Positions 6,801 to 37,093 are shown, counted from the first letter of the stretch. The stretch: DNA of 64,000 nt from Ktedonobacterales bacterium (GCA_046704085.1 JBJKSJ010000251.1:12983-76982), one strand, 5' to 3'. Notes: generated by a model from the letters alone, not told the origin. Program-made: numbers and translations.

Positions 6801-6819
6801 CAACGAAGCGAGTGAGCCG

Positions 6820-17512: not shown

Positions 17513-18700
17513 ATGCAGACCCAAGACTTACTGGCAAAACTGGTATCGATCAACTCAGCCTTTCCTGCGCCTCATCCTACCCCGGATCGGCCAGGAGAGC
17601 AGGCGCTTGGTGTCTTCGTCGAACAATGGCTCAAAGAGGCCGGGTTCGCCGTCCACCGGCAGGCTGTTGTTGGGGACCGCTTCAATGTGCTGGCCGAGAA
17701 AGGCCAGGGCACACAAGCACTCCTGTTTTCTGGGCATCTGGATACGGTTCCTGCTGCCAGCGGCTGGACCAGCGATCCGTGGGGACCGCGTGTGGAGGGC
17801 GACCGGCTCTATGGCCTGGGCAGTTGCGATATGAAAGGCGGGCTGTCTGCGCTCTTGCAGGCCGTGGAACACGTTGACCCACAGACGTACCGGCTCAAGC
17901 TCGCCTTTCTGGTGGATGAAGAGAATATCTCGCAGGGCGCTTATGCGCTGGTCCAATCGGGCTGGCTGCATGATGTGGTGGGGGTGCTAATTCCTGAAAT
18001 TGGCACATCGAGCGGCCAGCAGCTTGGTCCGCGCAGGATGACCCTGGGCCGCCAGGGGCGGGTAGATCTGGACATTCAGATTCGTGGCCGCTCGGCGCAT
18101 GCAGGCCAGGCCGAAGCGGGGGTCAGCGCCTTGCTGCGTGGCGCCGTGGTGGCCCTGGCCCTGGAGGAGCTGCCGCTGGCAGAGCATCCGCAACTGGGCC
18201 GCTCGCGTGCGACAATTCGGAGTTTTGTCTCCGAGGCCAAGGGACTCTCGATTCCAGACGTAGCGGAACTGCGGATTGATCGTCATCTGGTCCCCCCAGA
18301 AACCAGCGAAAGCGTCCGCCAAGAGGTCGAAGACCTGATTGAGCGTCTGTATCAAGAAGGGAAGTTAGCCTATGACACGGACTTCCCTACCACCGTGAGG
18401 GTGCCAGAGCGACTGACCCCTTACCTCAAGCCGTATGTAATCTCGCCGGCGAACCCGTTTGTTCAGTTAGTAGAGGAGATCATTCGGGAATACCTGGGGT
18501 CTGTGACCTACAATTATGCCTCCTCTGTGGCAGATGAAAATTATTATGGAGCGGACTTAGGGCTGCCCGTCATTGTCCTGGGTCCTGCTGGAGGGAATCA
18601 CCACGCGCCAGAGGAATGGGTCTGCCTGTCCAGCCTCGATGAACTGATTGCCATCTATCAGGAAGTCCTCGCTCGCTTCGAGCCCGCCAAGGAGAAATAA
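17513..18700 (+). CDS. M20 family metallopeptidase (ArgE/DapE/acetylornithine deacetylase-like)
   Basis: LLFSGHLDTVP, GLGSCDMKGG, FLVDEENISQG, dimerisation-domain block RGRSAHAG, C-terminal GPAGGNHHAPEEWV. Confidence 0.85.
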   Translation: MQTQDLLAKLVSINSAFPAPHPTPDRPGEQALGVFVEQWLKEAGFAVHRQAVVGDRFNVLAEKGQGTQALLFSGHLDTVPAASGWTSDPWGPRVEGDRLYGLGSCDMKGGLSALLQAVEHVDPQTYRLKLAFLVDEENISQGAYALVQSGWLHDVVGVLIPEIGTSSGQQLGPRRMTLGRQGRVDLDIQIRGRSAHAGQAEAGVSALLRGAVVALALEELPLAEHPQLGRSRATIRSFVSEAKGLSIPDVAELRIDRHLVPPETSESVRQEVEDLIERLYQEGKLAYDTDFPTTVRVPERLTPYLKPYVISPANPFVQLVEEIIREYLGSVTYNYASSVADENYYGADLGLPVIVLGPAGGNHHAPEEWVCLSSLDELIAIYQEVLARFEPAKEK

Positions 18701-18779
18701 GAGACGGCCTGGCGAGAAGGTGGAGGCTTCTCACCAGACCTTCTCTTCAACACACACAAGGGCAGCTTGGGGACCTTCC

Positions 18780-19833
18780 ACCTTCCTATTAGGGTTGGTT
18801 CTGGGGCAAGTCATCGCCGGGCCAATCAGTGACTTGTTTGGGCGTCGTCTTCCACTCTGCGTAGGGGGCGCCACCTATGCGCTAGCCTCCTTGTTCTGTG
18901 CAATCGTGCCTTCAGTGACCTTACTCATTCTGCTACGTTTCCTACAAGGTCTGGCCGGGGCAGCAGGCATCGTCATTGGGCGGGGCCATTGTGCGCGACC
19001 TGTAATCCGGACTGGCAGTAGCCCGATTCTTATCTCTGCTTATGGTTGTGAATGGCCTCGCGCCCATCCTTGCCCCCATTATTGTGGGCCAACTGCTTCG
19101 CTTCACCTCCTGGCGTGGCGTGTTCGTCACGCTCACTATCATAGGCATCGTGCTGCTCCTCGTCACTGCCTTCGGCCTGGGAGAATTACTGCCAGCAGAC
19201 CACCATCAGAAGGGCGGTATCCCGTCCATCTTGCCCACCTTCTGGCGGCTGCTCACTGATCGTTCTTTTGTTGGGTACGCGCTCGCTTGTGGCCTGGCCT
19301 TCGCTGCCGTGTTTGCCTTTATCTCCGGATCGGCCTTTGTACTGCAAGACATCTACGGCGTCTCGCCCCAACTCTTCAGCATCATGTTCGGTGTAAACGC
19401 ACTTGGTATCGTGATCACCAGCCAGGTCAACGGGCGACTGGTTGGACGTGTATCGCCATACCGTCTTCTTGCCATCGGCCTGACAGCCACAGCTTGTGGC
19501 GGAGCGGCACTGCTGGCTGTCGTCATAAGTGGTATCGGTCTGGTCGGTGTCCTGCCGTCGCTGTTTGTCGTTGTCGCCAGCATAAGTATCGTCTTGCCCA
19601 ACGCTACAACGCTGGCGCTTGTCAACTACGCCCGCACAGCGGGAAGCGCGTCCGACTTGCGTGGCGTGCTGCAATTCGTCATTGGAGTCTCCGCTGCGCC
19701 CCTCGTTGGCATCTGAAAAACCCACACAGCCTTACCGATGGGTATCGTCATCGCAGTGCTCGGTGTCTCTGCGCTGGCGGCATTTGTGGTGCTTGGCCGG
19801 GCACGCTCAGGCTGCAGCGACGGTGCCGTTTGA
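18780..19833 (+). pseudogene. Bcr/CflA-type MFS drug efflux transporter, degraded
   Basis: Homology starts in TM2 (TFLLGLVLGQVIAGPISDLFGRR), so about 45-55 N-terminal residues are missing. Frame break at the G4 run 18982-18985. In-frame TAA at 19003-19005 where RDLYSG is expected. In-frame TGA at 19714-19716, followed by TALPMGIVIAVLGVSALAAFVVL. Confidence 0.8.
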
Positions 19834-20904: not shown

Positions 20905-21891
20905 TCAGGGAACGAGGATGAGCTTGCGGCGCGCTGATGCCGCCTGACGCTCCCATGCCTCGGCAGCATGCGCGAGCGGCACGGTTTCTCGCTCTACTGT
21001 GCAGCGGCCAGCAGCAGCGTGCGAGAGGACTTCTGCGAGGGCTTGTGCTTTCTGTTCGTGCGTCAGCGCATTGTTGGTGTAGCCGAGGATAGCATGCAGC
21101 CGGCTGCGAATGATGGCCGATTCAAAGCGCGCGCTGGGGCCGGCAGCCGAACCAAGATTGACCAACCTTCCCTGTGAGGCCAGCACACGGAGAGCCGCTT
21201 CTGCCGGAATGCCACAAAGAGGGTCGATAACAAGATTGAGAGGGCCATCGCAGGCAGCAGTGATGCGCTGGCTGATCTCGTTTGCGTCAGCGCCTGTGAG
21301 GTCAACGACAGCGTCGGCTCCCTGCGTAAGCGCCCGCACGCGAGCAGCTTCGTCCCGTGAGGCTGCGATAACTCGACGAGCGCCAAGCAACTTAGCAGCT
21401 TGCACGGCTACCTGCCCAACCGCGCCGCTCGCACCGAGGACCAGCACCTGCTCCCCATGCTGAAGACGCCCGCGCCAGGTAAGCGCCATCCACGCGGCAA
21501 TCGCAGAGAGTCCGAGCGCTGCGGCCAGGTCATCCTCAATCTGGTCTGGGAGTGCGAGCGCTGCCGACTCCTTAATGACACAATACTGCGCCATGCTGCC
21601 GTCCCCAGGCTTCATGCCGGCGTCGCACGAGAACCACACCCTCTGACCGCGCGCGAGCGTCTCCGATTCCATTATGGAGCCAATGCCCTGCACGCCGGGA
21701 ATGTATGGAAGCGGTGGCGCGCCGAAGTAGGATGTGCCAGACGCGCACAGCAAATCTAACGGACTGATGGGGGCCGCTGTGACCCGTACCAAGGCTTGTC
21801 CCGGCTTGCGCTGAGGCATGGGTCTGGTACCATATTCGGGTGGAGCAGCGTGTTTGCGGATGACTGCCGCTGGCATCTCTTCGCTGGTCAT
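20905..21891 (-). CDS. Zinc-type alcohol dehydrogenase superfamily, NADPH:quinone oxidoreductase-like (MDR)
   Basis: GSMAQYCV, Rossmann motif VLVLGASGAVGQVAVQAAKLLGA, typical QOR length (328 aa). Confidence 0.85.
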   Translation of the reverse strand: MTSEEMPAAVIRKHAAPPEYGTRPMPQRKPGQALVRVTAAPISPLDLLCASGTSYFGAPPLPYIPGVQGIGSIMESETLARGQRVWFSCDAGMKPGDGSMAQYCVIKESAALALPDQIEDDLAAALGLSAIAAWMALTWRGRLQHGEQVLVLGASGAVGQVAVQAAKLLGARRVIAASRDEAARVRALTQGADAVVDLTGADANEISQRITAACDGPLNLVIDPLCGIPAEAALRVLASQGRLVNLGSAAGPSARFESAIIRSRLHAILGYTNNALTHEQKAQALAEVLSHAAAGRCTVERETVPLAHAAEAWERQAASARRKLILVP

Positions 21892-21996: not shown

Positions 21997-23439
21997 TTAT
22001 CGGCCTGTGTACTGGTACGGGTTGTCAATCACATCAACCTTCGCCTGCTCAAGAATCATTCCCTCGGTCCAGGCTTTCTCGCCCATTTTGGAGCGAGCGT
22101 ATTCAACTGTCTTCCCAACGGCTTCCTTAGCCCTGGCAAGATCAATACCGAGCAGGTGGTGATCGTATTTGACGACCTTGCCATCCACCATTACGGTATG
22201 GACGTCTCCGCGCCCAGCCTGGAAGACCACGTGCCCGTAAGGGTGAATGATCGGGAACATCGCCGGCGAATCGTCATTCTTAATCAGGACGAGATCGGCC
22301 TTCTTACCAGGAGTGATGCTGCCGATGAGGCTGTCCATCCCCAGCGCTTGAGCGCCGCCCATCGTTGCCCAGCCCACGACCTGCTCAGCGCGCAGGTGGT
22401 TGGTCATCACGGTTTCGTTGCGCTCGTGCGCTTCCCAGTGTTCGCGGGCGCGGTCCGCGTTGAGGGTGGCGCGCATTGCAGAGAACAGGTCCGAGCTCCA
22501 CCAGACGCTGGTGTCCATCGACAGGGAAACGGGGATGCCGTGCCGCCTGAGCGTCCACGTCGGCGAATAGCCCTGACCAGCACTGTCCTCGCTCTCGGTG
22601 GATATGGATGCGTAGCCGCCTGTAGCCGCGATGCGCTGATAGGAATCCCCAGAAAGCGTTGCCACATGGACGTAGATGTTTTTGGGGGTCATGAAGCCAT
22701 GTTCGTGCATTAAGCGGATGCCGTTATCGTTGGTAGCGCCCCAGACCCCGGCATGAGTGGTCACCGCCAGGTCGAAGTCGCGCGCTGCCTCGAACGCGCC
22801 CTTTTCGGGGAAGCTCGGATCGCCAAGCACATCGAACGCGATTTGCATGCGCAGCAGATCGCTCTTCCCATCAATACGCCGCTTGATGAAGTCGGCAAAC
22901 TCAGGGGTTCTGCTCCACTCCCAGGGCGCGCCAAGCAGGTTGCCATACGCGAGGACGAACCGACCTGGAACCGCCTCAAGCGCGTCAACCGCCGCGTCCG
23001 CATATTCCACCGTTTGTAAGCCATGCGACCAGTCAACGCTTGTGGTGACGCCAGCGTCTACCGCCTCAATGGCGCTGAGGAGATTCCCTGCATAGACATC
23101 TTCTGCGCGGAAATACTTGCCCCAGTTGAGGTAGTAGAACTGGAAGTAGTTCGTGAGCGTCCAATCAGCGCCGTACCCGCGCAGGGCCGTTTGCCACATA
23201 TGGCGGTGCGTGTCAACCATGCCTGGCATCAAGATGCCGTCGGACCCGTCAATCTCCACCGTGCCCTCCGGCACGACAAGCTGGTGCCCGACAGCTTCAA
23301 TGCGCTTATCGACGGCGAGGACATCGCCGCGCTCGATGACCCCCAGAGTTGGGTCAATCGTCAGCACGGTGGCGTTGCGAAACACTACAGGACGGCCTGG
23401 GAGGAAGGGATTACCGTTTGCTGCTGAAACCTGGCTCAT
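21997..23439 (-). CDS. Amidohydrolase family metal-dependent hydrolase/deaminase (Amidohydro_1, AtzA/TrzA/deaminase-like)
   Basis: Metal-binding site PGMVDTHRHMWQT, later HA/HV histidines, and C-terminal GSITPGKKADLVLI typical of the family. RBS GAGGTGAGCAGAATG supports the start at 23439. Confidence 0.85.
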   Translation of the reverse strand: MSQVSAANGNPFLPGRPVVFRNATVLTIDPTLGVIERGDVLAVDKRIEAVGHQLVVPEGTVEIDGSDGILMPGMVDTHRHMWQTALRGYGADWTLTNYFQFYYLNWGKYFRAEDVYAGNLLSAIEAVDAGVTTSVDWSHGLQTVEYADAAVDALEAVPGRFVLAYGNLLGAPWEWSRTPEFADFIKRRIDGKSDLLRMQIAFDVLGDPSFPEKGAFEAARDFDLAVTTHAGVWGATNDNGIRLMHEHGFMTPKNIYVHVATLSGDSYQRIAATGGYASISTESEDSAGQGYSPTWTLRRHGIPVSLSMDTSVWWSSDLFSAMRATLNADRAREHWEAHERNETVMTNHLRAEQVVGWATMGGAQALGMDSLIGSITPGKKADLVLIKNDDSPAMFPIIHPYGHVVFQAGRGDVHTVMVDGKVVKYDHHLLGIDLARAKEAVGKTVEYARSKMGEKAWTEGMILEQAKVDVIDNPYQYTGR

Positions 23440-23584
23440 TCTGCTCACCTCATTGTGTTCTGGCCGCAGAACGCGAAGCTGGCCGCGTGACATCCACGAG
23501 ATACCGTTTGCCTGGCGTCTCTGCCCACGTCCTGGTAGCCGTGTTGCAAGACCTGTTTTCAGGGGCTTAGCTAGTGGTCAACGT

Positions 23585-23609
23585 TGTCCGTATGGCGGAC
23601 AGGCGTCCG
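23585..23609 (-). promoter_or_regulatory. Candidate IclR operator (three half-sites)
   Basis: On the minus strand it reads CGGACG-CC-TGTCCG-CCATA-CGGACA and begins 8 nt after the -10 element. Same architecture as 24722-24746. Confidence 0.55.
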
Positions 23610-23617
23610 CTGCAAAA

Positions 23618-23646
23618 ATATTACCCGATTCGCACATCTGTGTCAA
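23618..23646 (-). promoter_or_regulatory. Sigma-70-like promoter for the amidohydrolase transcript
   Basis: Minus strand TTGACA (23646-23641), 17-nt spacer, TAATAT (23623-23618). Confidence 0.55.
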
Positions 23647-23653
23647 GTATCGC

Positions 23654-23672
23654 GATGCAACTACATTGCATC
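23654..23672. promoter_or_regulatory. Perfect 7-5-7 palindrome in the divergent intergenic region
   Basis: GATGCAA-CTACA-TTGCATC, directly next to the -35 of the minus-strand promoter. Confidence 0.35.
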
Positions 23673-23833
23673 ACTTTGGCGACATGCCAGACGCCATCAG
23701 CAACCAGCAGGAATGTGGGTTAGCATGGACAGCGAGACATACTTTCTGCTACGATAAGCGTGAAGAAAACTACCGCCTGTCGAGCTTCCTTGCAGCGTAG
23801 GTCAGATAAATTTGGTGTGCCAGAGGAGAAAGA

Positions 23834-24670
23834 ATGCGTGGTGAAACAGGACCAGACTTCATCGAAGCGCTCGCTCGTGGCCTGGATGTCATCCGAGCGT
23901 TTGGACCCACCCGACCAACGATGAGTCTGAGCGAGGTGGCTGCTGCTACCGGGCTGGCTCGACCGACGGCCCGCAGGATGCTGCTGACGCTTGAGGAGTT
24001 GGGGTATGGGCGCAGTGGACACGGCGAGTTTGTGCTCACCCCGCGCGTGCTGGAGCTTGGCATGGCCTACATCGGAGCGACCAATCTATGGGACATCGCC
24101 CGCCCACATATGGAACAACTGGTAGGATATACAGGTGAGTCGTCATCACTCGCGCAGCTTGATGGCTCAGACATCGTCTATGTCGCTCGCGTGGCAGTGC
24201 CGAAGATCATCACTATCGCGGTAACCATTGGGACACGTTTTCCGGCCCTTCAGACCTCGCTTGGGAAAGTCTTGCTTGCCGCGCTGTCGCCAGATGAGCT
24301 AGAACGGACGCTCGTTGAGCCAAGCCGCTCTGGCATTACACCGCTCTGGAAGCCGGATAAGGAGGAGCGTGACCAAGTACTCTGCGAGGTGCGCGAAAAG
24401 AGCTGGTCGCTTACTGATGAACACCTGGCCCCCGGCATTCGCTCCATCGCTGCGCCCGTGCGCGACGGCACGAATCAGGTGGTTGCCGCGCTCAATGTCT
24501 CTGTTCATGCAGCCGAGACCAGCATCGAAATTCTTACTCAGAAGTATCTGCCAGTGCTGTTGCAGACTGCTGCTGCCATCAGCGCCGATTGGGGGCAGTG
24601 GCAAAGCCGTCCAGAGATAACGCTTGACAGCAGGCCATCGAGCATCATTACGCAAAGATCGCCTGCTTGA
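23834..24670 (+). CDS. IclR family transcriptional regulator (PcaR/PcaU-like)
   Basis: FIEALARGLDVIRAFGPTRPTMSLSEVAAATGLARPTARRMLLTLEELGY winged HTH, followed by an IclR effector domain (SLAQLDGSDIVYVAR, IRSIAAPV). Confidence 0.9.
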   Translation: MRGETGPDFIEALARGLDVIRAFGPTRPTMSLSEVAAATGLARPTARRMLLTLEELGYGRSGHGEFVLTPRVLELGMAYIGATNLWDIARPHMEQLVGYTGESSSLAQLDGSDIVYVARVAVPKIITIAVTIGTRFPALQTSLGKVLLAALSPDELERTLVEPSRSGITPLWKPDKEERDQVLCEVREKSWSLTDEHLAPGIRSIAAPVRDGTNQVVAALNVSVHAAETSIEILTQKYLPVLLQTAAAISADWGQWQSRPEITLDSRPSSIITQRSPA

Positions 24671-24684
24671 TAACCTTGCGTCTC

Positions 24685-24713
24685 TTGACATCCTCTCTGA
24701 TGTTATCTATACT
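24685..24713 (+). promoter_or_regulatory. Sigma-70-like promoter of the CoA-transferase/LigAB operon
   Basis: TTGACA (24685-24690), 17-nt spacer, TATACT (24708-24713). Confidence 0.6.
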
Positions 24714-24721
24714 TGATTTCA

Positions 24722-24746
24722 CGGACAGGTGTCCGTTGTGCGGACA
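24722..24746 (+). promoter_or_regulatory. Candidate IclR operator (three half-sites)
   Basis: CGGACA-GG-TGTCCG-TTGTG-CGGACA, starting 8 nt after the -10 element. Confidence 0.55.
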
Positions 24747-24841
24747 AACCTCACGACGCGCTGGCGATTGGCTACCACGCGCCATGCACAATTGCCATTC
24801 GTGCCAACCGCTCACCAGGATTTACCGGAGGCGTGAACCTC

Positions 24842-26074
24842 ATGCCGGAGCAGGATAACGCGCAGCAGAACCAGAGTGCCGACATTCGGCCAGCCCCGCT
24901 TGATGGTCTGCTGATTGCCGACTTCTCGCGGGTACTTGCCGGTCCGTACTGCACCATGCTGCTGAGTGACCTTGGTGCAACGGTGATTAAAGTCGAAAGC
25001 CCCGCTGGGGACGAGACTCGAACCTGGTTGCCACCAGACCGCAATGGGGTAGCGACCTATTACCTGGCTATCAACCGCAACAAGCGCTCCATTGTCCTCG
25101 ATTTCCAAAACCCCACCGACCAGCAACTGGCGCAGGAACTTGCGGCCAGGGCCGACATCCTTATTGAAAACTTCAAGCCCGGCGGACTTAAGCGCTTTGG
25201 CCTGGACTATGATACCGTCCGGCAGCGGAACGCCGGGATCATCTACGCATCCATCAGTGGTTTCGGGACGGCGCAGGGGGCATCGCTCCCCGGTTATGAC
25301 CTCATCGTGCAGGCGGTGTCTGGATTGATGAGTATGACGGGTGCGCCTGATGGCCCGGCCTATCGCTCCGGCATCGCGGTCTTTGATGTGATGGCCGGGC
25401 TGCACTCAGCCATCGGCATTCTGGCTGCCCTCAACCACCGCAGCCGTACCGGTGAAGGCCAGCATATCGAAGTGAGTTTGCTCGCTTCGGCGCTTTCGGG
25501 ACTGGTCAACCATACGATGGCTTATGTGGCTGGCGGCGTTGTTCCGCACCGCATGGGCAACGCGCACCCAAGCCTCTTCCCCTACGAGCCGCTGCCTACA
25601 GGGGACCAGGAGTTGGTGATCGCTGTTGGCAACAATGGGCAGTTCATCAAGCTGTGTGAAACCCTCGACTGTTCTGAACTGGCGCAAGACCCGCGATTTG
25701 CCAACACCGAGGACCGCACCCACAACCGCGAAGCGCTGCGCCCGCTGCTGGTTGAGCGGCTGCGCGCCAGAACGGCAAGCGAATGGTTCCATCTGTTAAA
25801 CGCCGCTGGCGTGCCATGTGGCCCGATCAACAACATTGGAGAGGGCGTCAGGCTTGCCCAGGAACTGGGGCTGAACCCCATCGTCGAGGTTGGCTCCGGT
25901 GATGACGCGGTGCCCATGATTCGACATCCGATCTCATTCTCGCTGACGCCTCCGCGCCACACACTGCCGCCGCCAGCACTTGGGCAGGACAGCGAGCAGA
26001 TTCGCGCCTGGCTCAGCCAGCCAGCACGCGGCAACCCGGGGGAACTCAAACCGGCCAGCGCATCCGCAGAATAA
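24842..26074 (+). CDS. Family III CoA-transferase (CaiB/BaiF/Frc family)
   Basis: LDGLLIADFSRVLAGPYCTMLLSDLGATVIKVE, catalytic Asp region GYDLIVQAVSGLMSMTG, NAHPSLFPY. GGAGG RBS before the ATG at 24842. The upstream extension to 24713 overlaps the promoter and operator. Confidence 0.9.
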   Translation: MPEQDNAQQNQSADIRPAPLDGLLIADFSRVLAGPYCTMLLSDLGATVIKVESPAGDETRTWLPPDRNGVATYYLAINRNKRSIVLDFQNPTDQQLAQELAARADILIENFKPGGLKRFGLDYDTVRQRNAGIIYASISGFGTAQGASLPGYDLIVQAVSGLMSMTGAPDGPAYRSGIAVFDVMAGLHSAIGILAALNHRSRTGEGQHIEVSLLASALSGLVNHTMAYVAGGVVPHRMGNAHPSLFPYEPLPTGDQELVIAVGNNGQFIKLCETLDCSELAQDPRFANTEDRTHNREALRPLLVERLRARTASEWFHLLNAAGVPCGPINNIGEGVRLAQELGLNPIVEVGSGDDAVPMIRHPISFSLTPPRHTLPPPALGQDSEQIRAWLSQPARGNPGELKPASASAE

Positions 26075-26124
26075 ACTGCCACAACTGGCTTACGATATAT
26101 CCATCACCAGGAAGGAGTGGGGCT

Positions 26125-26955
26125 ATGGGAGCCGCTGAGCAAGGGGGACAGGCGAAATATCCCACTGGGATTGGAACGTCTGATGTCAACAGTATTCACC
26201 TGCTTGGTCATGATCTCGCGGGCGAGTTGATTGGCAACATCAGCTTTGGCGAACTGGCGCTCTGGCTCGCCACGCAGCAGCGACCTACCCCGCAGCAGGT
26301 GCGCGTCTTCGAGGCGGTGCTTGTCTCGCTGGCCGATCACGGCTTTACGCCCACTGCCATTGCGGCCCGTCTGACTCTGTACAGCGCTCCAGATGCGCTC
26401 CAGGGCGCGATAGCAGCGGGTCTCCTGGGTGGCGGCTCGCGGTTCCTCGGCGTCACAGAAGATACAGGACGATTCCTTGCTCGCGTGCTGGCAACCGTCA
26501 AAGGCAACCTTCCAACAACCGATGAGCAGTGGGACGCTCTGGCTCGCAAAGCAGTTTCTGAGCAGCGTGCCGCTGGTCGCTTTGTCCCAGGCTTGGGCCA
26601 CCCGGTCCATAAAAATGGCGACCCTCGTACCCCTGTCATCATAGCCATTGCCGCGCAGGAGGGCCTGCGCGGGCCGCATCTGCGCCTGTTCGAGGCCATT
26701 GGTCGCGTGCATGCCGAGATACTTGGCCGCAAACTTCCGCTCAATGGCGCTGGCGTGGGTGGCGCGGCGCTCGCCGACATCGGCTTGCCGCCTGAACTGC
26801 TGCGCGGCGTGGCCTTGCTTGCTCGCGCAGCGGGGCTGCTTGGGCACATTGCCGAAGAAATGCGTAACCCCATCGCGCCCGCTATTTATGCTTCGGTTGA
26901 CCGGAACGCTGTCTATCAGCCAGGGAGCAGCGCCGACGACACAGAACAGCGCTAG
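26125..26955 (+). CDS. Citrate synthase-fold protein, short citryl-CoA lyase-like type
   Basis: 276 aa. VLVSLADHGFTPTA, VPGLGHPVHKNGDPR (catalytic His motif of the citrate synthase family), LPLNGAGV, ARAAGLLGHIAEE. It lacks the N-terminal region of full-length citrate synthases. Confidence 0.8.
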   Translation: MGAAEQGGQAKYPTGIGTSDVNSIHLLGHDLAGELIGNISFGELALWLATQQRPTPQQVRVFEAVLVSLADHGFTPTAIAARLTLYSAPDALQGAIAAGLLGGGSRFLGVTEDTGRFLARVLATVKGNLPTTDEQWDALARKAVSEQRAAGRFVPGLGHPVHKNGDPRTPVIIAIAAQEGLRGPHLRLFEAIGRVHAEILGRKLPLNGAGVGGAALADIGLPPELLRGVALLARAAGLLGHIAEEMRNPIAPAIYASVDRNAVYQPGSSADDTEQR

Positions 26956-27008
26956 CCCAACTCGCCTGGACCTGCCACGCGCGCAGGTCGCACCCAAAGG
27001 AGGAAGTT

Positions 27009-27869
27009 ATGGCAAAAATCGTCGCTGTCCTCGCCACCACGCACCATCCATTCTTCTACCGCGCCAGCACCTCGCCGCCTGAGAGCCGGCCCGACTTTGC
27101 GGATGAGTGGGTGCGCAAGGTGCTGGCCTACCGCGAGACGCTGACCCGCGCCAAACCGGACGTCCTGGTGATGGTTGGTTCTGACCACTTCCACCAGTTG
27201 TTCTACGATAACATGCCGCAGTTCCTCATCGGAAAGGCCCCTTTCTACGAGGGGAACTACTACAATGAGGAGCGCGAGTTTGGACTGCCCCGCATGTTCC
27301 TCAAGGGGCACGAAGAACTCTCGGCGTATCTGCTGCGCGCCGGGCTAGATGCCGGTTTCGATCTCGCCTTCAGCAATGAACTGCGAGTAGATCACAGCAT
27401 TACTTGCCCCATTATTACGACCCGCCCGCAAGCGGACCTGCCCATCGTGCCTATCTACACGAATATCTTTGCGCCGCCTCTGCCGCAGCCCTGGCGATAC
27501 GTCCAGTTGGGCCGCACCCTGCGCAAGTTGCTCGAAGACTGGCCGAGCGATCAGCGTGTCGCTGTCATTGGTACGGGCCACCTGTCTCTCGAACTAGGCG
27601 GGCCGCGTCAGTTTGGCCCGCATGGGCCTGACCCGGACTTTGACCGCAAAGCCGTCGAATGGATTGCCAATGGCGACATCGAGGGCGCGTTACGCGACGT
27701 CTCGCTTGACAGCCTCTGGGAGCCGGGCAATGCCACGCATGGCTTCCTCGACTTCATGCTGATGATGGGCGTCGCCGGAGAAGTGAAGGCCGATTACGCT
27801 GATACCCTCGATTTGTTTCACACGATGGAAGCCTACTTTACCTGGTATCCGAATGGGGTGGAAGCATGA
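27009..27869 (+). CDS. Class III extradiol ring-cleavage dioxygenase, catalytic LigB-type subunit
   Basis: TTHHPFF (metal His), VMVGSDHFHQLF, VDHSITCPI, VIGTGHLSLELGG. AAAGGAGG RBS. Confidence 0.85.
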   Translation: MAKIVAVLATTHHPFFYRASTSPPESRPDFADEWVRKVLAYRETLTRAKPDVLVMVGSDHFHQLFYDNMPQFLIGKAPFYEGNYYNEEREFGLPRMFLKGHEELSAYLLRAGLDAGFDLAFSNELRVDHSITCPIITTRPQADLPIVPIYTNIFAPPLPQPWRYVQLGRTLRKLLEDWPSDQRVAVIGTGHLSLELGGPRQFGPHGPDPDFDRKAVEWIANGDIEGALRDVSLDSLWEPGNATHGFLDFMLMMGVAGEVKADYADTLDLFHTMEAYFTWYPNGVEA

Positions 27870-28228
27870 GCAAATATCTTCTTAATAAGTTTCTCTTCAC
27901 TATTGACCGTGACCCCGAACTGGTTGAGCGCTACCGCGTAGACCCACGTGGAACCGTTACCTGGTGGGAAAATGAGCGGGCTAACATCATCTTGAACCTG
28001 CCGGAAGCTGAATGCTGCACCTGGCAGAAGTTCACCGACGAAGAGCGCGAGGCGCTGGCAACACATAACTATGTCAAGCTCTTTGAGCTTGGCGCGCATA
28101 ATTTCCTGACGCTCACGCTCTTTATTGCCCTGTTCGAGCGAGATTATGAGGAACCGCTGGCTTTTCAGCGCGAATATGGGCGCAATCTTCAGCACTGGAA
28201 AGTGCCCTACCCGGACATCATCACATAA
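27866..28228 (+). CDS. LigA-like small subunit of the extradiol dioxygenase
   Basis: 120 aa. MSKYLLNKFLFTIDRDPELVERYRVDP...FTDEEREAL...YVKLFELGAHNFLTLTL matches the all-helical LigA pattern. Start overlaps the ligB-type stop (ATGA). Confidence 0.65.
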   Translation: MSKYLLNKFLFTIDRDPELVERYRVDPRGTVTWWENERANIILNLPEAECCTWQKFTDEEREALATHNYVKLFELGAHNFLTLTLFIALFERDYEEPLAFQREYGRNLQHWKVPYPDIIT

Positions 28229-28292
28229 CGAAGGTCGGGAACCAAGACATCTGGAAGGCTGTGTGGCAACGCTGTGATAAAGGGGAAATACT

Positions 28293-29318
28293 GTGATTGA
28301 TAGACTGTTGACGACGGTTATAGGAAGCTATCCGCAACCCGAATGGCTGGTGGACCGTAAGAACTTGCAGAGTCGGCTGCCGCCGCGTATCCGGGCAAAG
28401 GAAATCTGGCGCATCCCAGAGCCGCTGCTCCAACAGGCCCAGGACGATGCGACCCTGCTCGCCATTCGTGACATGGAGCGCGCCGGCGTCGATATTATCT
28501 CTGACGGGGAGATACGCCGGGAGAGTTATTCCAACCGCTTTGCCACGGCATTAAATGGGATGGACCTCGATAACCCTGGGGTGGCTATCGACCGCACCGG
28601 CCACTCCAACCCTGTGCCGCATGTCGTCGGCCCGATCCGTCGCTTGCATCCAGTGGAGGCGGGCGACGTGGAGTTTCTGCGCCACAACACCGACCGCCGC
28701 ATTAAAATCACAGTGCCAGGCCCGTTCACCGTCTCCCAGCAGGCACAGGATGACTATTACCACGATGAAAAAGCATTGGCAATGGATATTGCTGCCGCCG
28801 TGAACGAGGAGATCAAAAGCTTGCAGGCTGCCGGAGCCGATGTGGTACAGATCGATGAACCCTATCTGCAAGCGAGGGCGGAAAAAGCGAAGGCATATGG
28901 GGTAGAGGTGATCAATCGGTCGCTGGAAGGGATTGAAGGCACAACGGCGCTGCACCTCTGCTTTGGCTACGCGGCCATTGTGCATAATCGGCCTGGGCAG
29001 TATTCGTTCCTCACGGAACTGCGTGATTGCGTAGTGAAGCAGATTGCGATAGAGGCGGCGCAGCCACGCCTTGATCTGTCCATCCTGCGTCAATTAGCCA
29101 ATAAAACCATTATTCTCGGTGTCTTGAATCTAGGCGATATGGAGGTGGAGACACCAGAGATTGTGGCCGGCAGAATACGCGCAGCCCTGGAATATGTCGA
29201 GCCGGAGCGGCTGATCCTGGCCCCAGACTGTGGCATGAAATACCTGCCGCGAGATGTCGCTTTTGGCAAGCTGTGCGCTTTGGTCAAAGGAGCCAGAATG
29301 ATTCGACAAGAATTATAA
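28293..29318 (+). CDS. Cobalamin-independent methionine synthase C-terminal-domain family protein (Meth_synt_2, MetE-like)
   Basis: TTVIGSYPQPEWL, ISDGEIRRESY, QIDEPYL, zinc ligands in HLCFGY and APDCGMKYL. 341 aa, single domain. Confidence 0.8.
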   Translation: MIDRLLTTVIGSYPQPEWLVDRKNLQSRLPPRIRAKEIWRIPEPLLQQAQDDATLLAIRDMERAGVDIISDGEIRRESYSNRFATALNGMDLDNPGVAIDRTGHSNPVPHVVGPIRRLHPVEAGDVEFLRHNTDRRIKITVPGPFTVSQQAQDDYYHDEKALAMDIAAAVNEEIKSLQAAGADVVQIDEPYLQARAEKAKAYGVEVINRSLEGIEGTTALHLCFGYAAIVHNRPGQYSFLTELRDCVVKQIAIEAAQPRLDLSILRQLANKTIILGVLNLGDMEVETPEIVAGRIRAALEYVEPERLILAPDCGMKYLPRDVAFGKLCALVKGARMIRQEL

Positions 29319-29618: not shown

Positions 29619-29861
29619 TTGCCATTTCTGGAATGTTTGACCACGATTGCCTCTTTGGCAGTGGCGCATCCAGCGCTCAAAATAGGCACCAGCGTGGTGG
29701 CTCAGTCATACCGCAACCCGGCGTTGCTGGCGAAGATGACGGCGAATCTCGAGTGGCTGACCGGGGGACGCTTCCTCTTGGACATCGGAGCGTGGTGGAA
29801 GGATGATACCCCATCCATCTTTTCCCGAAGGGGACAAATCAGCGACCAAGCAGTAGCCTAA
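29619..29861 (+). pseudogene. Luciferase-like monooxygenase (LLM) internal fragment
   Basis: LTTIASLAVAHPALKIGTSVVAQSYRNPALLAKMTANLEWLTGGRFLLDIGAWW matches the central LLM block. The N-terminal (about 70 aa) and C-terminal (about 200 aa) parts are absent. Confidence 0.6.
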
Positions 29862-29942: not shown

Positions 29943-31004
29943 TTACGCGTGGAGTGCCTGCATCAGTGCCCCCAACTGAGCCTGGGTCTCTTCGATGGAG
30001 CCGGTGGGCATACTCAGCAGCGGCTCTTCTACACCATCAGCCACCCAGCGATCAAGGGTGGTCACTACCTCGGCGGGTGTGCCCACGAGGGTAGTGGCCT
30101 CGAAGAGCGCGGAGGAAACTGCTTTGACAGCCGCCTTCATGCCCTGTTTCCAACCGGCCTGCACTGCTTGGACGTCGGCTGCAAAGCCATGGCGTGCCAA
30201 CATCTGGGCATAGGAACTGCCCATGCGGCCGATGTAGTAGGCCAGGGGAAAGGTGGCGGCCAAGCGACGGGCCGCACGGCGCTCCTCATCCAAGCCTTCC
30301 TCCAAGAGAGCGCAAGTCAGGTAGGGGGCAATGGTTGCGCTGTGGGGCGGACGCCCGGCCAAGGCTGCCCCCTCGTCGAGTTCTCGGCGCAGTTCGCCCC
30401 ATTTCGTCGCTGGCCAGTAGATCGGCAGCGCACCATCCGCAATTTCGCCCGTTTGCACGACGTTTTGGGGTCCCAGCGCCGCGATATAGATGGGCATATC
30501 AGGCCGCTTCGGCTTGAAACGCAGCTTGAACCCGTGCTCAAGTTGGAAGAGTTCCCCGTGGTAGACCAGTTTCTCGCCACGCAAGATTAAACGAATAATC
30601 TCCACGTACTCACGAGTACGCCGTAGCGGTTTCTCGAAAGGAACCCCATGCCAGTGTTCGATGACCTGGGCGCCCGACGGACCAAGCCCCAGCATCATAC
30701 GCCCGCCGGAGCGCTCATCCAGCGTGGCGATGGTACTGGCGATCACGGCGGGAGAACGCGAGTAAATATTGGCGATGCCTGCGCCAATCTTGATGCGCTT
30801 GGTCACCCGCACCAGATCGGTCAGTGAGGTAAAGAGTTCGTAGCCCCAGGACTCGCCTAGCCAGAGGGAGTCGTAGCCTAGGCGATCAGCGATTTTGGCT
30901 TTTTCCAGCACCTGATCCCAGGCGGCGGGGAAATTGGGGGAATCGGCGATCAGCCCGACTTTGCCTGCATAGTCCCGTTTGGAATTCGCAGCGGCGCGTC
31001 CCAT
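29943..31004 (-). CDS. LLM class F420-dependent oxidoreductase / luciferase-like monooxygenase
   Basis: YDSLWLGESWGYE, IKIGAGIANIYSRSPAVIA, SGGRMMLGLGPSG. AAGGAGGG RBS before the ATG at 31004. Confidence 0.85.
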   Translation of the reverse strand: MGRAAANSKRDYAGKVGLIADSPNFPAAWDQVLEKAKIADRLGYDSLWLGESWGYELFTSLTDLVRVTKRIKIGAGIANIYSRSPAVIASTIATLDERSGGRMMLGLGPSGAQVIEHWHGVPFEKPLRRTREYVEIIRLILRGEKLVYHGELFQLEHGFKLRFKPKRPDMPIYIAALGPQNVVQTGEIADGALPIYWPATKWGELRRELDEGAALAGRPPHSATIAPYLTCALLEEGLDEERRAARRLAATFPLAYYIGRMGSSYAQMLARHGFAADVQAVQAGWKQGMKAAVKAVSSALFEATTLVGTPAEVVTTLDRWVADGVEEPLLSMPTGSIEETQAQLGALMQALHA

Positions 31005-31034
31005 CCCAGCGGTCCCTCCTTGCTTTCCATTCAC

Positions 31035-33913: not shown

Positions 33914-34467
33914 TTATCCGTTGGCCAGGTGTTTGACCAAGCGTACGTAGGGCTGGTAATAGAGGCGGGTCTGCTGGATGACCACGTAGTGCAAGCGTTG
34001 ATACAGGGACAAAGCCAGCTCGTTCTCCTGGGCGGCATTGAGCGCGATCTTGGCATAGCCGTGCTGTCGTCCCTGCTGCTCTGCCCCTTGCAGCAGGCGG
34101 GTGCCGATGCCCTGGTGGCCCCATTCGGTGAATACCGCCAGGGCATCGACGTACCATTCGTCCGCCTCGGCCTGGCGTTCCAGGGACCAGCCGAGGGCGG
34201 CATTGAGGCGCGCTTCCTCGCGCCCGCCAAAGCTCAACACCAAGCTAACCACCCCAGCGCTCTGCTCGGCGACCAGGATGCATTGATAACTGAAACGGTT
34301 CCCCTCCTGACGAAAGAAGTGCGCTAACCGCTCGAGCCACTGGTACTCCCTGCCATCGGCAGGAGAGAGGTCACCTGCCGATGGTGGTAGGCAGAATACA
34401 ACAAGACGGCTGCTCTTTCGGCGTCCTCTGGCCGGGCTGGTCTGAGCGTAAGGTCCTCTGTCGTCAT
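33914..34467 (-). pseudogene. GNAT family N-acetyltransferase, frameshifted
   Basis: The N-terminus MTTEDLTLRPARPEDAERAAVLLYSAYHH is in one frame. The rest (REYQWLERLAHFFRQEGNRFSYQCILVAEQSAGVVSL...WYVDALAVFTEWGHQGIGTRLLQGAEQQGRQHGYAKIALNAAQENELALSLYQRLHY) is in another. The break lies at 34351-34390. Confidence 0.65.
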
Positions 34468-34924
34468 GGCTGCTGGACTTCCCCTGATCAGGATCAAAGG
34501 CGGCCTGCGCCGGGTTGCAATGAAACGCGAACTCAAGGCCCAAGACTGTCATATGCCTGGAGGCGATCTGGTCGACGAGCGTCGGGTGGAGCATAATCGC
34601 CGCGTCTATGTCGTCGAAAGACCCATGCTCCGTGTTCTGGTCGTTGCTCCCATCAATGGAAGAGCGTGCTATCCGCAATGCCCGGATCGCGTGCCACCTG
34701 ACTGGTACTCTTCCCGCTCGTTTGGGCTCATCGTACCACTACCTGCGTGAATTCCGTGGTAAAGGTTCGCTGGTCTTGTGCCTAGGTCCTCCGCTTCGGA
34801 GAGGCTCCCAACTTTGGCGTCTCTACGAGAGCGGGGCAATCTCATCTTCTAGGTGGTCTATTCTTTGTACCAACATCGCAGGGAGTCAACACAGCGAGGC
34901 GCACCGCTTGTACGCGATTCCCGA

Positions 34925-37093
34925 TTAACGGGCCGCCAGCGCTGCCCGCATCCGATCCGGGGTGAACGGCACCCGGCGCAACCTCGCACGGGTCGCTGCG
35001 TAGACGGCGTTGGCGACCGCCGCCGCCACCGTCACCGTAGCTGGCTCTCCCGCGCCCACCGATGGTTCGTCCGTTCGGTTGATGAGCACGATCTCCAGCT
35101 CCGGCACCTCGGAGAAGGTGAGCAAGGGATAGCCCTCCCAGTCGACGGTCGTTTGCCCCCCGGCATCGAAGCGCACCTCTTCCTTGAGCGCTCGGCTGAG
35201 CGCCTGGATCACATTGCCCTCCACCTGGTTGCGCACGCCATCGGGATTGACGATCAGCCCGCAGTCGTGGGCCACCACCAGGCGCCGCACACGCAGCGCA
35301 CCCGTCGCCTCGTCCACCGCAACGTGTGCCACCATCGCGACGTAGGCTTCGTCGTTCTCGTAACACGCAAAGGCGACACCACGCCCCTCCCCAGAGGGTA
35401 GCGCCTCGCCCCAGTCAGCGGCCAGCCCCGCAGCCGCCAGCACGTCGCGCCCGCGCGGATCATCCAGGTGGCGGAGGCGGAACTCCAGTGGGTCCGCCTC
35501 GGCAGCAGCGGCCAGTTCGTCCATAAAAGACTCGTTGGCAAAGGTGTTGCCCGCGCCACCGAGCGACCGCATGGACGAGGTGCGCAGCGGGGGGTTGGCG
35601 ATGCCGTGCATGATGAGACGCCGGTCTGCGAGCCGATAATTGGTCGGCGCGTTGCGTTCGCCGCCGAAGAACGCGGCTGACGGTATCTGCTTGGGCACTT
35701 CTCGCACCTCGCGCCCCGCTAACAGCCCCAGCGCCGTGCGCGGCCGGTTCGTGTGGGTCGGGGACCAGACGTCATAGCGCCAGGCCACGATGCGGCCATC
35801 CTGGTCGAGCCCGGCGGACACGTCCATCACCATCGGCGCCGCCTTGGGCTCGCCAAGGAACTCGTCGCGCCGCGACCACTGCACGCGAACCGGTCGGCCC
35901 ACCTCGCGCGCCAGCAGCGCGGCATCCGCTGCCACGTCCTCCGAGCCGTTCTGGCCATAGGCTCCTGCGCCCTCCAGGTGGATGACACGGATACGCTCCG
36001 GCGGCAGTTGCAGGAGATCGGCGAGAGCCCCACGCAGGGGATAGACTCCGCCTGAGCTGGCCCACACGGTCAGCGCGCCGTCGCGCATCTCGGCCACCGC
36101 GCACGATGGGCCGATGGAGGCGTGCGCCTGGAAGGGCTGCTCATAGACGGCATGCACTCGTTTTGCCGCGCAACGCATCGCCCCCTCCACATCCCCCGCC
36201 TCCGCGATGACATGGTCAGTGGTGGTCTGTGCGCGCATCCAGTCGTAGAGGTGCTCCATCGGGGGCAGGTCCAGCGTTTCTTCCCAGGTCACCTGGAGCT
36301 GGGAGACCGCCTTGATCGCTTGCTCCTCGCGATCGGCCACCACGCCGATAAAGTTGCCCAGGCGGATGACCTGGGCGCCCTGCACCGCGCTGTCGTTCAG
36401 CGTCAGCACGCGCGCACCGGGTCGGCGCGCCCGGACCACCCGCCCATGCAGCATGCCAGGCAGGCGCAGGTCTTGGACGAAGCTGGGCGCCCCGGTGAAC
36501 TTGCCCAGCAAGTCCACGCGCCGCGCATTGCTGCCAACGACCCGGTATTCTTGTGGCTGCTTGAGTGGGGCATGCCCGCTGATCTGGCGCGCGAAGGGCG
36601 CCCCGCCTTGCAGCTCGCCATAGCTGACGCGCTGGTTAGGCGCTCCGTATACAGAGATTACCCCCTCGTGTACCTCCAGTTGCTCGCGCGGCACACCCAG
36701 CCGCTCGGCGGCACGCTCGAACAGCGCCAGCCGCGCCTCCGCCGCCGCCTTGCGGAGTTGCCCGCCGCCCATGCGCACCGTCATGCTGCCGGCAGTGTAG
36801 CCCTCGTCTGGCGCGCGGCCCGTGTCGCCCATCACCAGGCGCACGCGCTCCAGCGGTACATCCAGCTCCTCAGCCACGATCTGCGCGAGCGTTGTGCGTA
36901 CGCCTGTGCCCGTCTCCACCTTGCCGCTATAGGCCACGACCGTGCCCTCTGGCTCGATGGCAATCCAATCGTCCAGATTGGTGCTGGCCGCCGCCCAGAA
37001 CGACCGTTGCGGCGAAGCGGTCTCCGCCTGACCACTGGTGGGGCTGTTGGCATCGGTGGTGCCACTCTCGCGTTGTGGGGCATTCTGTGTCAT
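34925..37093 (-). CDS. Molybdopterin-binding large subunit of a xanthine dehydrogenase-family hydroxylase (IorB / aldehyde oxidoreductase type)
   Basis: GKVETGTGVRTTLAQIVAEELDVP, two a/b-hammerhead/MoCo domains, GAGAYGQNG, GVGEP-type motif SVGAGEPATV. The ATG overlaps the stop of the 2Fe-2S subunit (TGATG). Confidence 0.9.
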   Translation of the reverse strand: MTQNAPQRESGTTDANSPTSGQAETASPQRSFWAAASTNLDDWIAIEPEGTVVAYSGKVETGTGVRTTLAQIVAEELDVPLERVRLVMGDTGRAPDEGYTAGSMTVRMGGGQLRKAAAEARLALFERAAERLGVPREQLEVHEGVISVYGAPNQRVSYGELQGGAPFARQISGHAPLKQPQEYRVVGSNARRVDLLGKFTGAPSFVQDLRLPGMLHGRVVRARRPGARVLTLNDSAVQGAQVIRLGNFIGVVADREEQAIKAVSQLQVTWEETLDLPPMEHLYDWMRAQTTTDHVIAEAGDVEGAMRCAAKRVHAVYEQPFQAHASIGPSCAVAEMRDGALTVWASSGGVYPLRGALADLLQLPPERIRVIHLEGAGAYGQNGSEDVAADAALLAREVGRPVRVQWSRRDEFLGEPKAAPMVMDVSAGLDQDGRIVAWRYDVWSPTHTNRPRTALGLLAGREVREVPKQIPSAAFFGGERNAPTNYRLADRRLIMHGIANPPLRTSSMRSLGGAGNTFANESFMDELAAAAEADPLEFRLRHLDDPRGRDVLAAAGLAADWGEALPSGEGRGVAFACYENDEAYVAMVAHVAVDEATGALRVRRLVVAHDCGLIVNPDGVRNQVEGNVIQALSRALKEEVRFDAGGQTTVDWEGYPLLTFSEVPELEIVLINRTDEPSVGAGEPATVTVAAAVANAVYAATRARLRRVPFTPDRMRAALAAR

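Follow-up and report, generated by a model that had tools for sequence, protein, structure and literature searches.

What becomes of an aromatic ring opened by an extradiol dioxygenase when the genes beside the dioxygenase are not those of the known lower pathways? The question is raised by a cluster in a 64,000-nucleotide stretch of DNA from a Ktedonobacterales bacterium (GCA_046704085.1 JBJKSJ010000251.1:12983-76982; the whole of this 64 kb stretch is called the window hereafter), in which genes for a LigAB-type dioxygenase (LigB′ and LigA′) are joined to genes for a family III CoA-transferase (CoAT) and a short citrate-synthase-fold protein (CSL). An earlier note on this DNA had suggested that they form a non-canonical, CoA-dependent lower pathway. 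We propose, at a probability of roughly 0.55, that the locus is an IclR-controlled regulon for a hydroxylated aromatic compound, in which extradiol cleavage is followed by a CoA-dependent lower branch; the compound is most likely an aromatic acid. This proposal starts from what was observed of the protein families, the operon layout, an operator shared by two units and a gene linkage kept in three phyla. The cluster is real, is predicted to be under a repressor and is conserved in soil bacteria of these phyla.

Which genes belong together? About 50 open reading frames (ORFs) of the window were put through profile searches (Pfam, NCBIfam), and the eight gene families named earlier for the cluster were all borne out, LigA more weakly than the others. 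The features of the locus are as follows.

20905-21891, minus strand: MDR, a quinone/enoate-reductase-type NAD(P)H oxidoreductase (Pfam ADH_zinc_N and ADH_N), accessory.
21997-23493 (ORF; likely coding sequence 21997-23439), minus strand: AMH, an Amidohydro_1 protein distant from the COG0402/TRZ-ATZ deaminases.
23585-23601, no strand assigned: operator 1, palindrome TGTCCGTATGGCGGACA, immediately downstream of the AMH promoter.
23618-23646, minus strand: promoter-like site of the AMH-MDR unit, TTGACA-17-TAATAT, 10/12 matches.
23834-24670, plus strand: PcaR/PcaU/PobR-type regulator of the IclR family, which presumably represses both units.
24685-24713, plus strand: sigma-70-type operon promoter, TTGACA-17-TATACT, 11/12 matches, top site of the region.
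24713-26074 (ORF; likely coding sequence 24842-26074), plus strand: CoAT, family III (CaiB/BaiF) CoA-transferase (CoA_transf_3, 391.5 bits).
24722-24746, no strand assigned: operator 2, CGGACAGGTGTCCGTTGTGCGGACA, which holds TGTCCGTTGTGCGGACA at 24730-24746, right behind the operon -10 element.
26125-26955, plus strand: CSL, short citrate-synthase-fold protein of 276 aa (PF00285 and NF004868).
27009-27869, plus strand: LigB′, catalytic subunit of a class III extradiol dioxygenase, distinct subfamily (Pfam LigB, 76.9 bits).
27866-28228, plus strand: LigA′-like small subunit of 120 aa, with ATGA overlap with ligB and a sub-threshold match to Pfam LigA.
28293-29318, plus strand: MetE-like single-domain zinc protein of 341 aa (Meth_synt_2, 112 bits), an accessory (peripheral) enzyme.

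The families of the earlier gene list were thus upheld, and two of its start sites were moved. CoAT most likely starts at the ATG at 24842, with GGAGG just before it, and AMH most likely at 23439, which matches a database protein of 480 aa (P0241, 100% identical across the alignment). The claim that five genes form one promoter-led unit was supported by the promoter, which is present at the place claimed for it, and by intergenic gaps of 50, 53, -4 and 64 nt. Every one of the five genes is preceded by a Shine-Dalgarno sequence, and no convincing internal terminator was found inside the operon.

The second question is whether the divergent genes AMH and MDR are part of the same system. The 17-bp palindrome TGTCCG-N5-CGGACA has exactly two copies in 64 kb, both of them at promoters, against a chance expectation of 0.13. 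Of 70 related loci, 50 have the shorter form GTCCG-N5-CGGAC at most 350 nt upstream of CoAT, and its density elsewhere in the loci is 0.02 per kb. On a Rhodococcus plasmid it stands in the gap that separates the IclR gene from the operon's first gene. The IclR protein scores 264.2 bits against TIGR02431 (PcaR/PcaU/PobR; cut-off 284.75), its top match by a wide margin. We infer that the palindrome is the IclR operator and, because it stands at both promoters of the window as well as upstream of CoAT in those 50 loci, that AMH-MDR shares its regulation with the five-gene operon, in a single regulon. The inclusion of the divergent pair, made earlier from the sequence, is supported by this common operator and by synteny in other genomes. 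The conserved operator together with its regulator would also be a candidate biosensor.

Is the arrangement kept in other genomes? One genome per species was scanned, and at least 567 stretches were found to encode LigB′ relatives; the best 80 of these at least 567 loci (14 from Chloroflexota and 66 from Actinomycetota, about 20 kb each) made up the neighbourhood set. LigB′ and LigA′ are present in all 80, CSL in 71, CoAT in 69, AMH in 69, IclR in 68, MDR in 42 and the MetE-like gene in 11. Both CoAT and CSL are found in 68 loci, CoAT, CSL and LigB′ are colinear in 62/80, and the six core genes occur all together in 58. With a recurrence running from 80/80 for LigB′A′ down to 58/80 for all six core genes, the gene arrangement is not a matter of chance. 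The nearest LigB′ relatives (88-94% identity) are all from metagenome-assembled genomes (MAGs) of Ktedonobacterales, in the Chloroflexota. A haloarchaeal source, suggested at first by the matches of an F420-type luciferase-like monooxygenase and of the short MetE protein, was rejected in view of these relatives and of the sigma-70-type promoters. The actinobacterial proteins have a median identity to those of the window of 81% for LigB′ and of 66-69% for the other core proteins. When the ORFs of the 80 loci were clustered all against all, no further conserved family emerged near the cluster, and therefore no hidden neighbour of the LigI/J/K type. Families of the LigC/I/J/K type were absent from the ~50 window ORFs scanned, as had been claimed from the sequence, and from the conserved genes of the 80 neighbourhoods, and those window ORFs hold no Amidohydro_2, RraA-type aldolase, PrpF or GFO/Idh/MocA gene.

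Beyond these loci, a search of annotated plasmid proteins recovered LigB′ at 62-67% identity in Rhizobiales and in one Rhodococcus. The co-occurrence of the dioxygenase, the CoA-transferase and the citrate-synthase-fold gene is thus kept in Chloroflexota, Actinomycetota and Alphaproteobacteria. The variants that show how the core is combined with other genes are listed below.

Aminobacter sp. MSH1, pUSP2 (L085): IclR, TRAP transporter, CocE/NonD hydrolase, MetE-like protein, CSL, CoAT, LigB′ and LigA′; no AMH.
Sinorhizobium sp. B11: branched-chain-type ABC transporter, regulator, small NAD(P)H oxidoreductase, CSL, CoAT, LigB′, LigA′ and AMH.
Martelella mediterranea: TRAP transporter, CoAT and CSL divergent from IclR, AMH, LigB′ and LigA′.
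Rhodococcus sp. NBC_00297: IclR, MhpA-like flavin hydroxylase, alpha/beta hydrolase, AMH, CoAT, CSL, LigB′ and LigA′.
Rhizobium johnstonii: P450 near LigB′A′, alpha/beta hydrolase about 0.6 kb off, and an FAH-family gene.
Rhizobium sp. Q54: P450 near LigB′A′, alpha/beta hydrolase about 3 kb off.
Actinomycetospora (L046): PobA-family monooxygenase within the operon.
Rhodococcus rhodochrous BX2 plasmid (L094, 3063-9789): IclR, CoAT and CSL (64-68% identity) with a VOC-family protein (189 aa), a flavin hydroxylase (554 aa), an NTF2 protein and an alpha/beta hydrolase; no LigB′.

As searched by tblastn across all loci, the PobA-like, MhpA-like, P450, esterase, FMN reductase and Rieske genes are each limited to one or a few loci, and such accessory genes hint at the class of the substrate without defining it. 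The transporters of the variants point to an anionic aromatic acid. The PobA-family enzyme of Actinomycetospora retains Tyr201, Arg214, Tyr222 and probably Tyr385 of 4-hydroxybenzoate hydroxylase, and has Ala at 294 and Thr at 199; T294A belongs to the substitutions by which PobA has been turned towards the hydroxylation of protocatechuate to gallate. The VOC-family protein of BX2 is possibly a one-domain extradiol dioxygenase, and since CoAT, CSL and IclR are paired there with its gene, CoAT/CSL would appear to be a module that follows candidate ring-cleavage genes. We read LigB′A′ and CoAT/CSL, usually with AMH, as the pathway proper, and the MetE-like protein, hydroxylases, P450s and esterases as peripheral funnelling. 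Aminobacter MSH1 substrain MK1 lacks pUSP2 entirely (PMC8460812), which makes it a natural knock-out of the pUSP2 variant of the cluster.

A LeuD-like gene after the Rhodococcus cluster was considered as a pathway hydratase and rejected, as it has no large subunit and scores above the cut-off as an ordinary LeuD. At 5031-7467 the window carries a CocE/NonD (Peptidase_S15) hydrolase gene beside a TetR regulator; the hydrolase (5031-6800) was rejected as an orthologue of the in-cluster Aminobacter enzyme, to which it is only 27% identical, and it is probably unrelated to the pathway. In the region 53144-63134, a full transporter and a sensor kinase/response regulator pair are accompanied by two solute-binding proteins of the branched-chain ABC type (53144-54451 and 61815-63134), each 26-27% identical to that of the Sinorhizobium variant.

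The third question concerns the ring-cleaving enzyme. LigB′ scores well above the cut-off of 26.3 bits for PF02900. Its AlphaFold2 (AF2) model has a pTM of 0.77, with low confidence in the active-site loops, and Foldseek gave the gallate dioxygenase DesB and LigB as the best matches of this model (23-24% identity, TM 0.74-0.77, probability 1.00), with aminophenol dioxygenases as second-tier matches. In a profile alignment to 1B4U_B and 3WKU, the Fe(II) ligands His12 and His60/61 and the equivalent of His127 are kept, in the motifs THHPF, SDHFH and RIDHS, which are invariant across 15 sequences. For the third metal ligand (LigB Glu242), the alignments stop near residue 220, and His244 and Glu274 are the invariant candidates. 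LigB′ is a new subfamily of a known dioxygenase class. The assignment to LigA in the earlier gene list is weak: the protein scores 20.9 bits against Pfam LigA (PF07746), below the gathering score of 25.3, and a profile search of the Protein Data Bank (PDB) sequences gave chance matches and no LigA chain. Against this, 7 of 9 orthologues match the same model (E<=0.01, sub-threshold), the gene overlaps ligB by 4 nt (ATGA, translational coupling), and it adjoins LigB′ in 80/80 loci.

CoAT is, by its sequence, a regular family III enzyme. It aligns with profile positions 1-365 of 366 of CoA_transf_3, and its GYDLIVQAVSG aligns with GYDFMIQGMGG of 4ED9; the Asp of this GYDxxxQ motif is presumably the catalytic residue. 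Among named families, those closest to it are the succinate-glutarate, succinate-hydroxymethylglutarate, oxalate and mesaconate CoA-transferases, with 273 bits against the succinyl-CoA:mesaconate CoA-transferase model. CSL scores 75 bits against PF00285 (Citrate_synt) and 286 bits against NF004868 ('citryl-CoA lyase', cut-off 193), and its closest solved structure is the citryl-CoA lyase (CCL) of Hydrogenobacter thermophilus (PDB 6HXP, E 4e-25). Both catalytic His, the equivalents of His274 and His320, are retained in ADHG and GLGHP. It belongs to a large uncharacterised clade and probably acts on acyl-CoA esters. Its relatives (P0361-P0510) are all named 'citryl-CoA lyase' in genome annotation.

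A citrate-synthase-fold enzyme next to a CoA-transferase might also be thought of as a synthase in a biosynthetic cassette, and CCL-like and CaiB-like genes have been proposed to form the dialkylmaleic anhydride in the tautomycin and tautomycetin clusters. The present cluster has a regulator of the PcaR/PobR type, its variants carry uptake transporters, hydroxylases and esterases, its flanks vary among genomes, and no polyketide synthase, non-ribosomal peptide synthetase or tailoring genes are conserved nearby, all of which makes a biosynthetic role very improbable.

The best NCBIfam matches of MDR are PIG3 quinone oxidoreductase and acryloyl-CoA reductase, all below their cut-offs, and it is nearer to PIG3-type quinone reductases and acryloyl-CoA reductases than to zinc alcohol dehydrogenases. 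In related loci it lies downstream of AMH or directly after LigA′, and in Rhizobiales a small FMN-type NAD(P)H oxidoreductase is found in its place. As two unrelated reductases share this accessory position, a substrate that autoxidises to a quinone, or the reduction of a C=C bond, would fit.

The MetE-like protein keeps the zinc ligands HxC...C (LHLCFGY and PDCGMK in 11 sequences) and the IDEP motif. Its best equivalog scores (242 vs cut-off 406, and 240 vs 392) are low, and it is not a two-domain MetE. It is 63% identical to the in-cluster orthologue on Aminobacter pUSP2 and shares about 34% identity with plasmid genes that carry the annotation 'methionine synthase'. Orthologues (64-65%) on Roseomonas and Pseudoroseomonas plasmids (L092 and L093, both at 9001-10035) belong to another kind of aromatic cluster, where their neighbours are an intradiol dioxygenase, an NTF2 protein, an ABC transporter and an FAH-family gene. 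The gene had been counted as a member of the cluster; its presence in 11/80 loci and its company with an intradiol dioxygenase elsewhere make it accessory rather than core.

How might the parts work together? From the families and their neighbours we infer every reaction and substrate of the scheme given here. IclR would bind the palindrome at the two promoters and repress AMH-MDR and CoAT-CSL-LigB′-LigA′-MetE-like until an effector relieves the repression. LigB′A′ would open the ring of a catechol or, with greater likelihood, of a 1,2,3-triol, for instance gallate. Cleavage of a triol gives a diacid directly, so that no aldehyde dehydrogenase would be needed, in keeping with the lack of such a gene here. 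AMH would then act on the product of ring cleavage much as LigI and LigJ do, hydrolysing a pyrone or lactone or adding water as a hydratase; another option is that it frees the diol from a precursor. An unsaturated or hydroxy polycarboxylate (oxalomesaconate- or citrate-like) would be converted by CoAT into its CoA thioester, whose C-C bond would be split by CSL to give central metabolites, and the acyl-CoA product could serve as CoA donor for the next round of CoAT, as in citrate lyase, with no need of ATP. The CoAT/CSL pair would in this manner replace the hydratase-aldolase steps of LigJ/LigK (GalB/GalC). With gallate, 4-oxalomesaconate may yield either acetyl-CoA and 2,4-dioxoglutarate or glyoxylate and 2-oxoglutaryl-CoA; a beta-keto diacid could also undergo hydrolytic retro-Claisen cleavage to acetyl-CoA and a dicarboxylate. 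MDR, or the FMN reductases in other taxa, would keep an autoxidisable substrate reduced or would reduce a C=C bond, and the MetE-like zinc enzyme, P450s, flavin hydroxylases and esterases would funnel substituted precursors to the common substrate. For the substrate, a polyhydroxylated aromatic acid of the gallate or protocatechuate type is the best guess; taken singly, a gallate-type substrate is less likely than not, and protocatechuate is an unlikely one.

Several observations weigh against this reading. The first concerns LigB′, in which GTGHLSLE(LG) is found instead of the usual GTGGxSH, with a Leu at the position of the catalytic His195 of LigB (DesB His192). The motif GTGHLSLE is invariant in all three phyla and has a His three residues before that position. 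The second is that AMH belongs by sequence to a deaminase/dechlorinase group, and the third that it is absent from the Aminobacter variant. These points bear on a different explanation, namely a pathway for an amino- or N-heteroaromatic compound (aminophenol, hydroxypyridine/pyrimidine), in which LigB′A′ would act like 2-aminophenol 1,6-dioxygenase, AMH would remove ammonia by deaminating the substrate or an imine or amide ring-fission product, and CoAT/CSL would finish the skeleton. The replaced His of LigB′ and the second-tier structural matches to aminophenol dioxygenases would suit it, and so would AMH, whose sole detectable relatives are COG0402 deaminases/chlorohydrolases (isoxanthopterin/8-oxoguanine, methylthioadenosine/S-adenosylhomocysteine, atrazine) and which is the tightest partner of LigB′A′, eight loci having only AMH-IclR-LigB′A′. 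However, AMH has THAGVWG (H-A-G-V) at the HxxE site of the COG0402 deaminases, so that the proton-shuttle Glu is missing, as it is in the 30-34% identical plasmid relatives of AMH. Furthermore, the Aminobacter variant has a CocE/NonD esterase and the MetE-like gene instead of AMH, and the accessory genes of the variants encode a PobA-family enzyme with benzoate-binding residues, an MhpA-like hydroxylase, P450s and transporters of the aromatic-acid type, with no nitrogen-handling genes. A nitrogenous substrate is improbable on this balance.

What, then, does AMH do? It scores 376 bits against NCBIfam PRK08204 (cut-off 391) and falls far under the cut-offs of all equivalog models. The metal ligands HxH, His, His and Asp are kept, with DTHRH, TTHAG, YVH and SMDTS invariant in 72 sequences; its AF2 model, made from a shallow alignment, has a pLDDT of 38 and is unusable. 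Given the H-A-G-V at the HxxE site and the lack of an equivalog match, deamination has no higher probability than the action of a hydrolase or hydratase for which the substrate would be a lactone, an ester or an enoate, and AMH is probably not a deaminase. The earlier suggestion that it acts on an N-substituted substrate is weakened by the missing Glu.

A further set of points against the CoA-dependent reading lies in CSL. The protein is devoid of the catalytic Asp, since PLNGAG in Chloroflexota and Actinomycetota replaces LNVDG/PNVDF, the Asp of the (L/P)NVD(G/F) motif being, by the numbering that we assume, Asp375 of pig citrate synthase and Asp1026 of ATP-citrate lyase (ACLY). The alphaproteobacterial proteins have N(V/I)S(S/G) here, i.e. 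a Ser at the Asp position. The oxaloacetate-binding (A/R)HGG is replaced by SRFLG too. Lyase chemistry would then require another proton donor, or the reaction differs. Without the Asp and the HGG, a plain retro-Claisen cleavage of the citryl-CoA-lyase type is therefore not to be assumed, and the lyase label given to CSL earlier is doubtful. Most of the nearest relatives, annotated as citryl-CoA lyase, are Asp-less too: in the nearest 50%-identity clusters, represented by 85 full-length proteins, 67 have Ala, Thr or Ser at this position and only 8 have Asp. The small residues could provide space for an acyl-CoA that bears a substituent, or the proton may come from the substrate itself.

Is it possible that the lower pathway is after all the ordinary one? 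Our view covers 64 kb of the genome, and LigI/J/K or GalB/C/D genes could lie elsewhere in it. Moreover, eight actinobacterial MAG loci retain AMH-IclR-LigB′A′ with no CoAT/CSL nearby (in the one such locus examined, the flanks are unrelated), and the alphaproteobacterial CoAT, CSL and AMH are only 30-40% identical to those of the window, as against 64-65% for LigB′. Under ordinary protocatechuate/gallate 4,5-cleavage, with LigC/I/J/K (GalB/C/D) encoded elsewhere, CoAT/CSL would act on a side product or on an unrelated di- or tricarboxylate. The limited view, the loci that do without the pair and the stronger divergence of CoAT and CSL in Alphaproteobacteria would all agree with this, as would the occurrence of CSL-like proteins in non-aromatic acyl-CoA clusters; an Asp-less relative, 40% identical to CSL, is found amid SDR, acyl-CoA dehydrogenase and MaoC genes in marine Roseobacteraceae (Sagittula, L095, 8989-9783). 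What stands against it is the colinearity of CoAT-CSL-LigB′ in 62/80 loci and a link kept in three phyla, the want of any conserved LigI/J/K-type family in the 80 neighbourhoods, an operator placed before CoAT itself, and the re-pairing of CoAT/CSL/IclR with a VOC-family gene in R. rhodochrous BX2. We regard the ordinary pathway as distinctly unlikely. The earlier idea of a non-canonical, CoA-dependent lower pathway is backed in outline by comparative genomics and has to be amended in three points: the label of lyase is questionable for CSL, the MetE-like protein moves to the accessory genes, and deamination by AMH is improbable.

Three other sites in the window were recorded in passing. An MFS transporter gene (18648-19716) is split across overlapping frames, 18648-19259 and 19042-19716; as each frame matches a different part of MFS_1, it is a frameshifted pseudogene or a sequencing error. 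Behind the operon, an 80-aa ORF at 29619-29861 (plus strand) is a remnant of a luciferase-like monooxygenase (LLM); it matches residues 66-118 of an intact F420-type LLM, encoded at 29943-31034 (minus strand), at 32% identity. The stretch 34001-38000, with a G+C of 0.65-0.67 against 0.55-0.60 in most of the window and a molybdopterin-hydroxylase large subunit gene at 34925-37111, may be acquired DNA.

What would the CoA-dependent pathway mean if it holds? A broader statement, which we offer tentatively and at somewhat less than even odds, is that an undescribed way of finishing extradiol cleavage exists, widespread in Chloroflexota, Actinomycetota and Alphaproteobacteria with at least 567 species, in which the ring-fission acid is handled as a CoA thioester and split by an Asp-less clade of the citrate-synthase fold, and that the MetE-like protein is a new cobalamin- and oxygen-independent peripheral enzyme (e.g. 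an aryl O-demethylase) that serves more than one ring-cleavage pathway. In that case the large Asp-less 'citryl-CoA lyase' clade, which is probably misnamed in annotation, would gain its first function, and functions would also be found for a distinct LigB subfamily and a divergent amidohydrolase. Should the substrate be gallate or a related acid derived from tannin, lignin or flavonoids, the cluster would account for the use of such abundant plant compounds by many soil actinomycetes, Ktedonobacteria and rhizobia, and would supply new parts for the valorisation of lignin and tannin.

It remains to place the cluster among known systems. In the full-text literature searched for the cluster or its enzyme families no description was found, a phn-island paper naming such genes only in passing; the earlier note, too, knew of no characterised pathway with this gene combination. 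To our knowledge, a family III CoA-transferase and a citrate-synthase-fold protein following an extradiol dioxygenase have no characterised precedent. The regulator, the transporters and the peripheral enzymes are ordinary for aromatic catabolism.

Protocatechuate 4,5-cleavage proceeds through LigAB-LigC-LigI-LigU/LigJ-LigK in Sphingobium sp. SYK-6, and the gallate pathway through GalA/DesB-GalD-GalB-GalC in Pseudomonas putida KT2440. With these routes the cluster shares a class III extradiol dioxygenase that keeps the Fe-ligand His and the His127 equivalent and is paired with a small LigA-like subunit, an amidohydrolase-superfamily enzyme alongside the dioxygenase (cf. LigI and LigJ) and, in the variants, aromatic-acid transporters. 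It differs from them in that LigB′ is only 23-24% identical to DesB and LigB and has GTGHLSLE for GTGGxSH, in that the LigC, LigI, LigJ, LigK and LigU families are missing, in that AMH is of the Amidohydro_1 (deaminase-like) rather than the Amidohydro_2 type and the regulator of the IclR type, and in that a family III CoA-transferase and a citrate-synthase-fold protein take the place of the hydratase and aldolase. The 2-aminophenol 1,6-dioxygenase AmnAB is likewise a two-subunit enzyme of the LigB fold (Foldseek E about 1e-11 to 1e-12), whereas the identity to it is 15-19% and the cluster contains neither an aminomuconate semialdehyde dehydrogenase nor a RidA-type deaminase.

For the lower branch, CSL resembles citryl-CoA lyase (6HXP) and the CCL module of ACLY in its short citrate-synthase fold, its two His and a partner that makes the thioester; citrate lyase offers the parallel of a CoA transfer with the lyase reaction after it. 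Unlike CCL and ACLY, it has Gly-Ala or Ser for the Asp of LNVDG, has lost the HGG and stands in the context of aromatic catabolism; the partner is a CaiB-type transferase and not, as for CCL, a citryl-CoA synthetase that is succinyl-CoA-synthetase-like. The routes for itaconate, mesaconate and citramalate and the methylaspartate cycle employ a dicarboxylate CoA-transferase, a hydratase and a citramalyl- or methylmalyl-CoA lyase. There, as proposed here, an unsaturated or hydroxy dicarboxylate is first activated by a CoA-transferase of family III, and the resulting CoA ester is cleaved by a lyase; their lyases, however, have the CitE/HpcH or HMG-lyase fold and their hydratase is of the MaoC type, whereas here the fold is that of citrate synthase and the cluster has no MaoC.

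The lower part of the beta-ketoadipate pathway, with its PcaR-regulated PcaIJ CoA-transferase and PcaF thiolase, offers a parallel in logic, with a PcaR/PobR-type regulator and a ring-fission diacid that is converted into a CoA thioester and cleaved at a C-C bond to central metabolites. In the present cluster the cleavage would be extradiol instead of intradiol, the transferase is of family III instead of family I, and a citrate-synthase-fold protein would stand in for the thiolase. The lower parts of extradiol (meta-cleavage) pathways are held to be hydratase-aldolase or hydrolase routes; if our reading is right, the conserved pair of CoA-transferase and citrate-synthase-fold protein would be a new solution for them.

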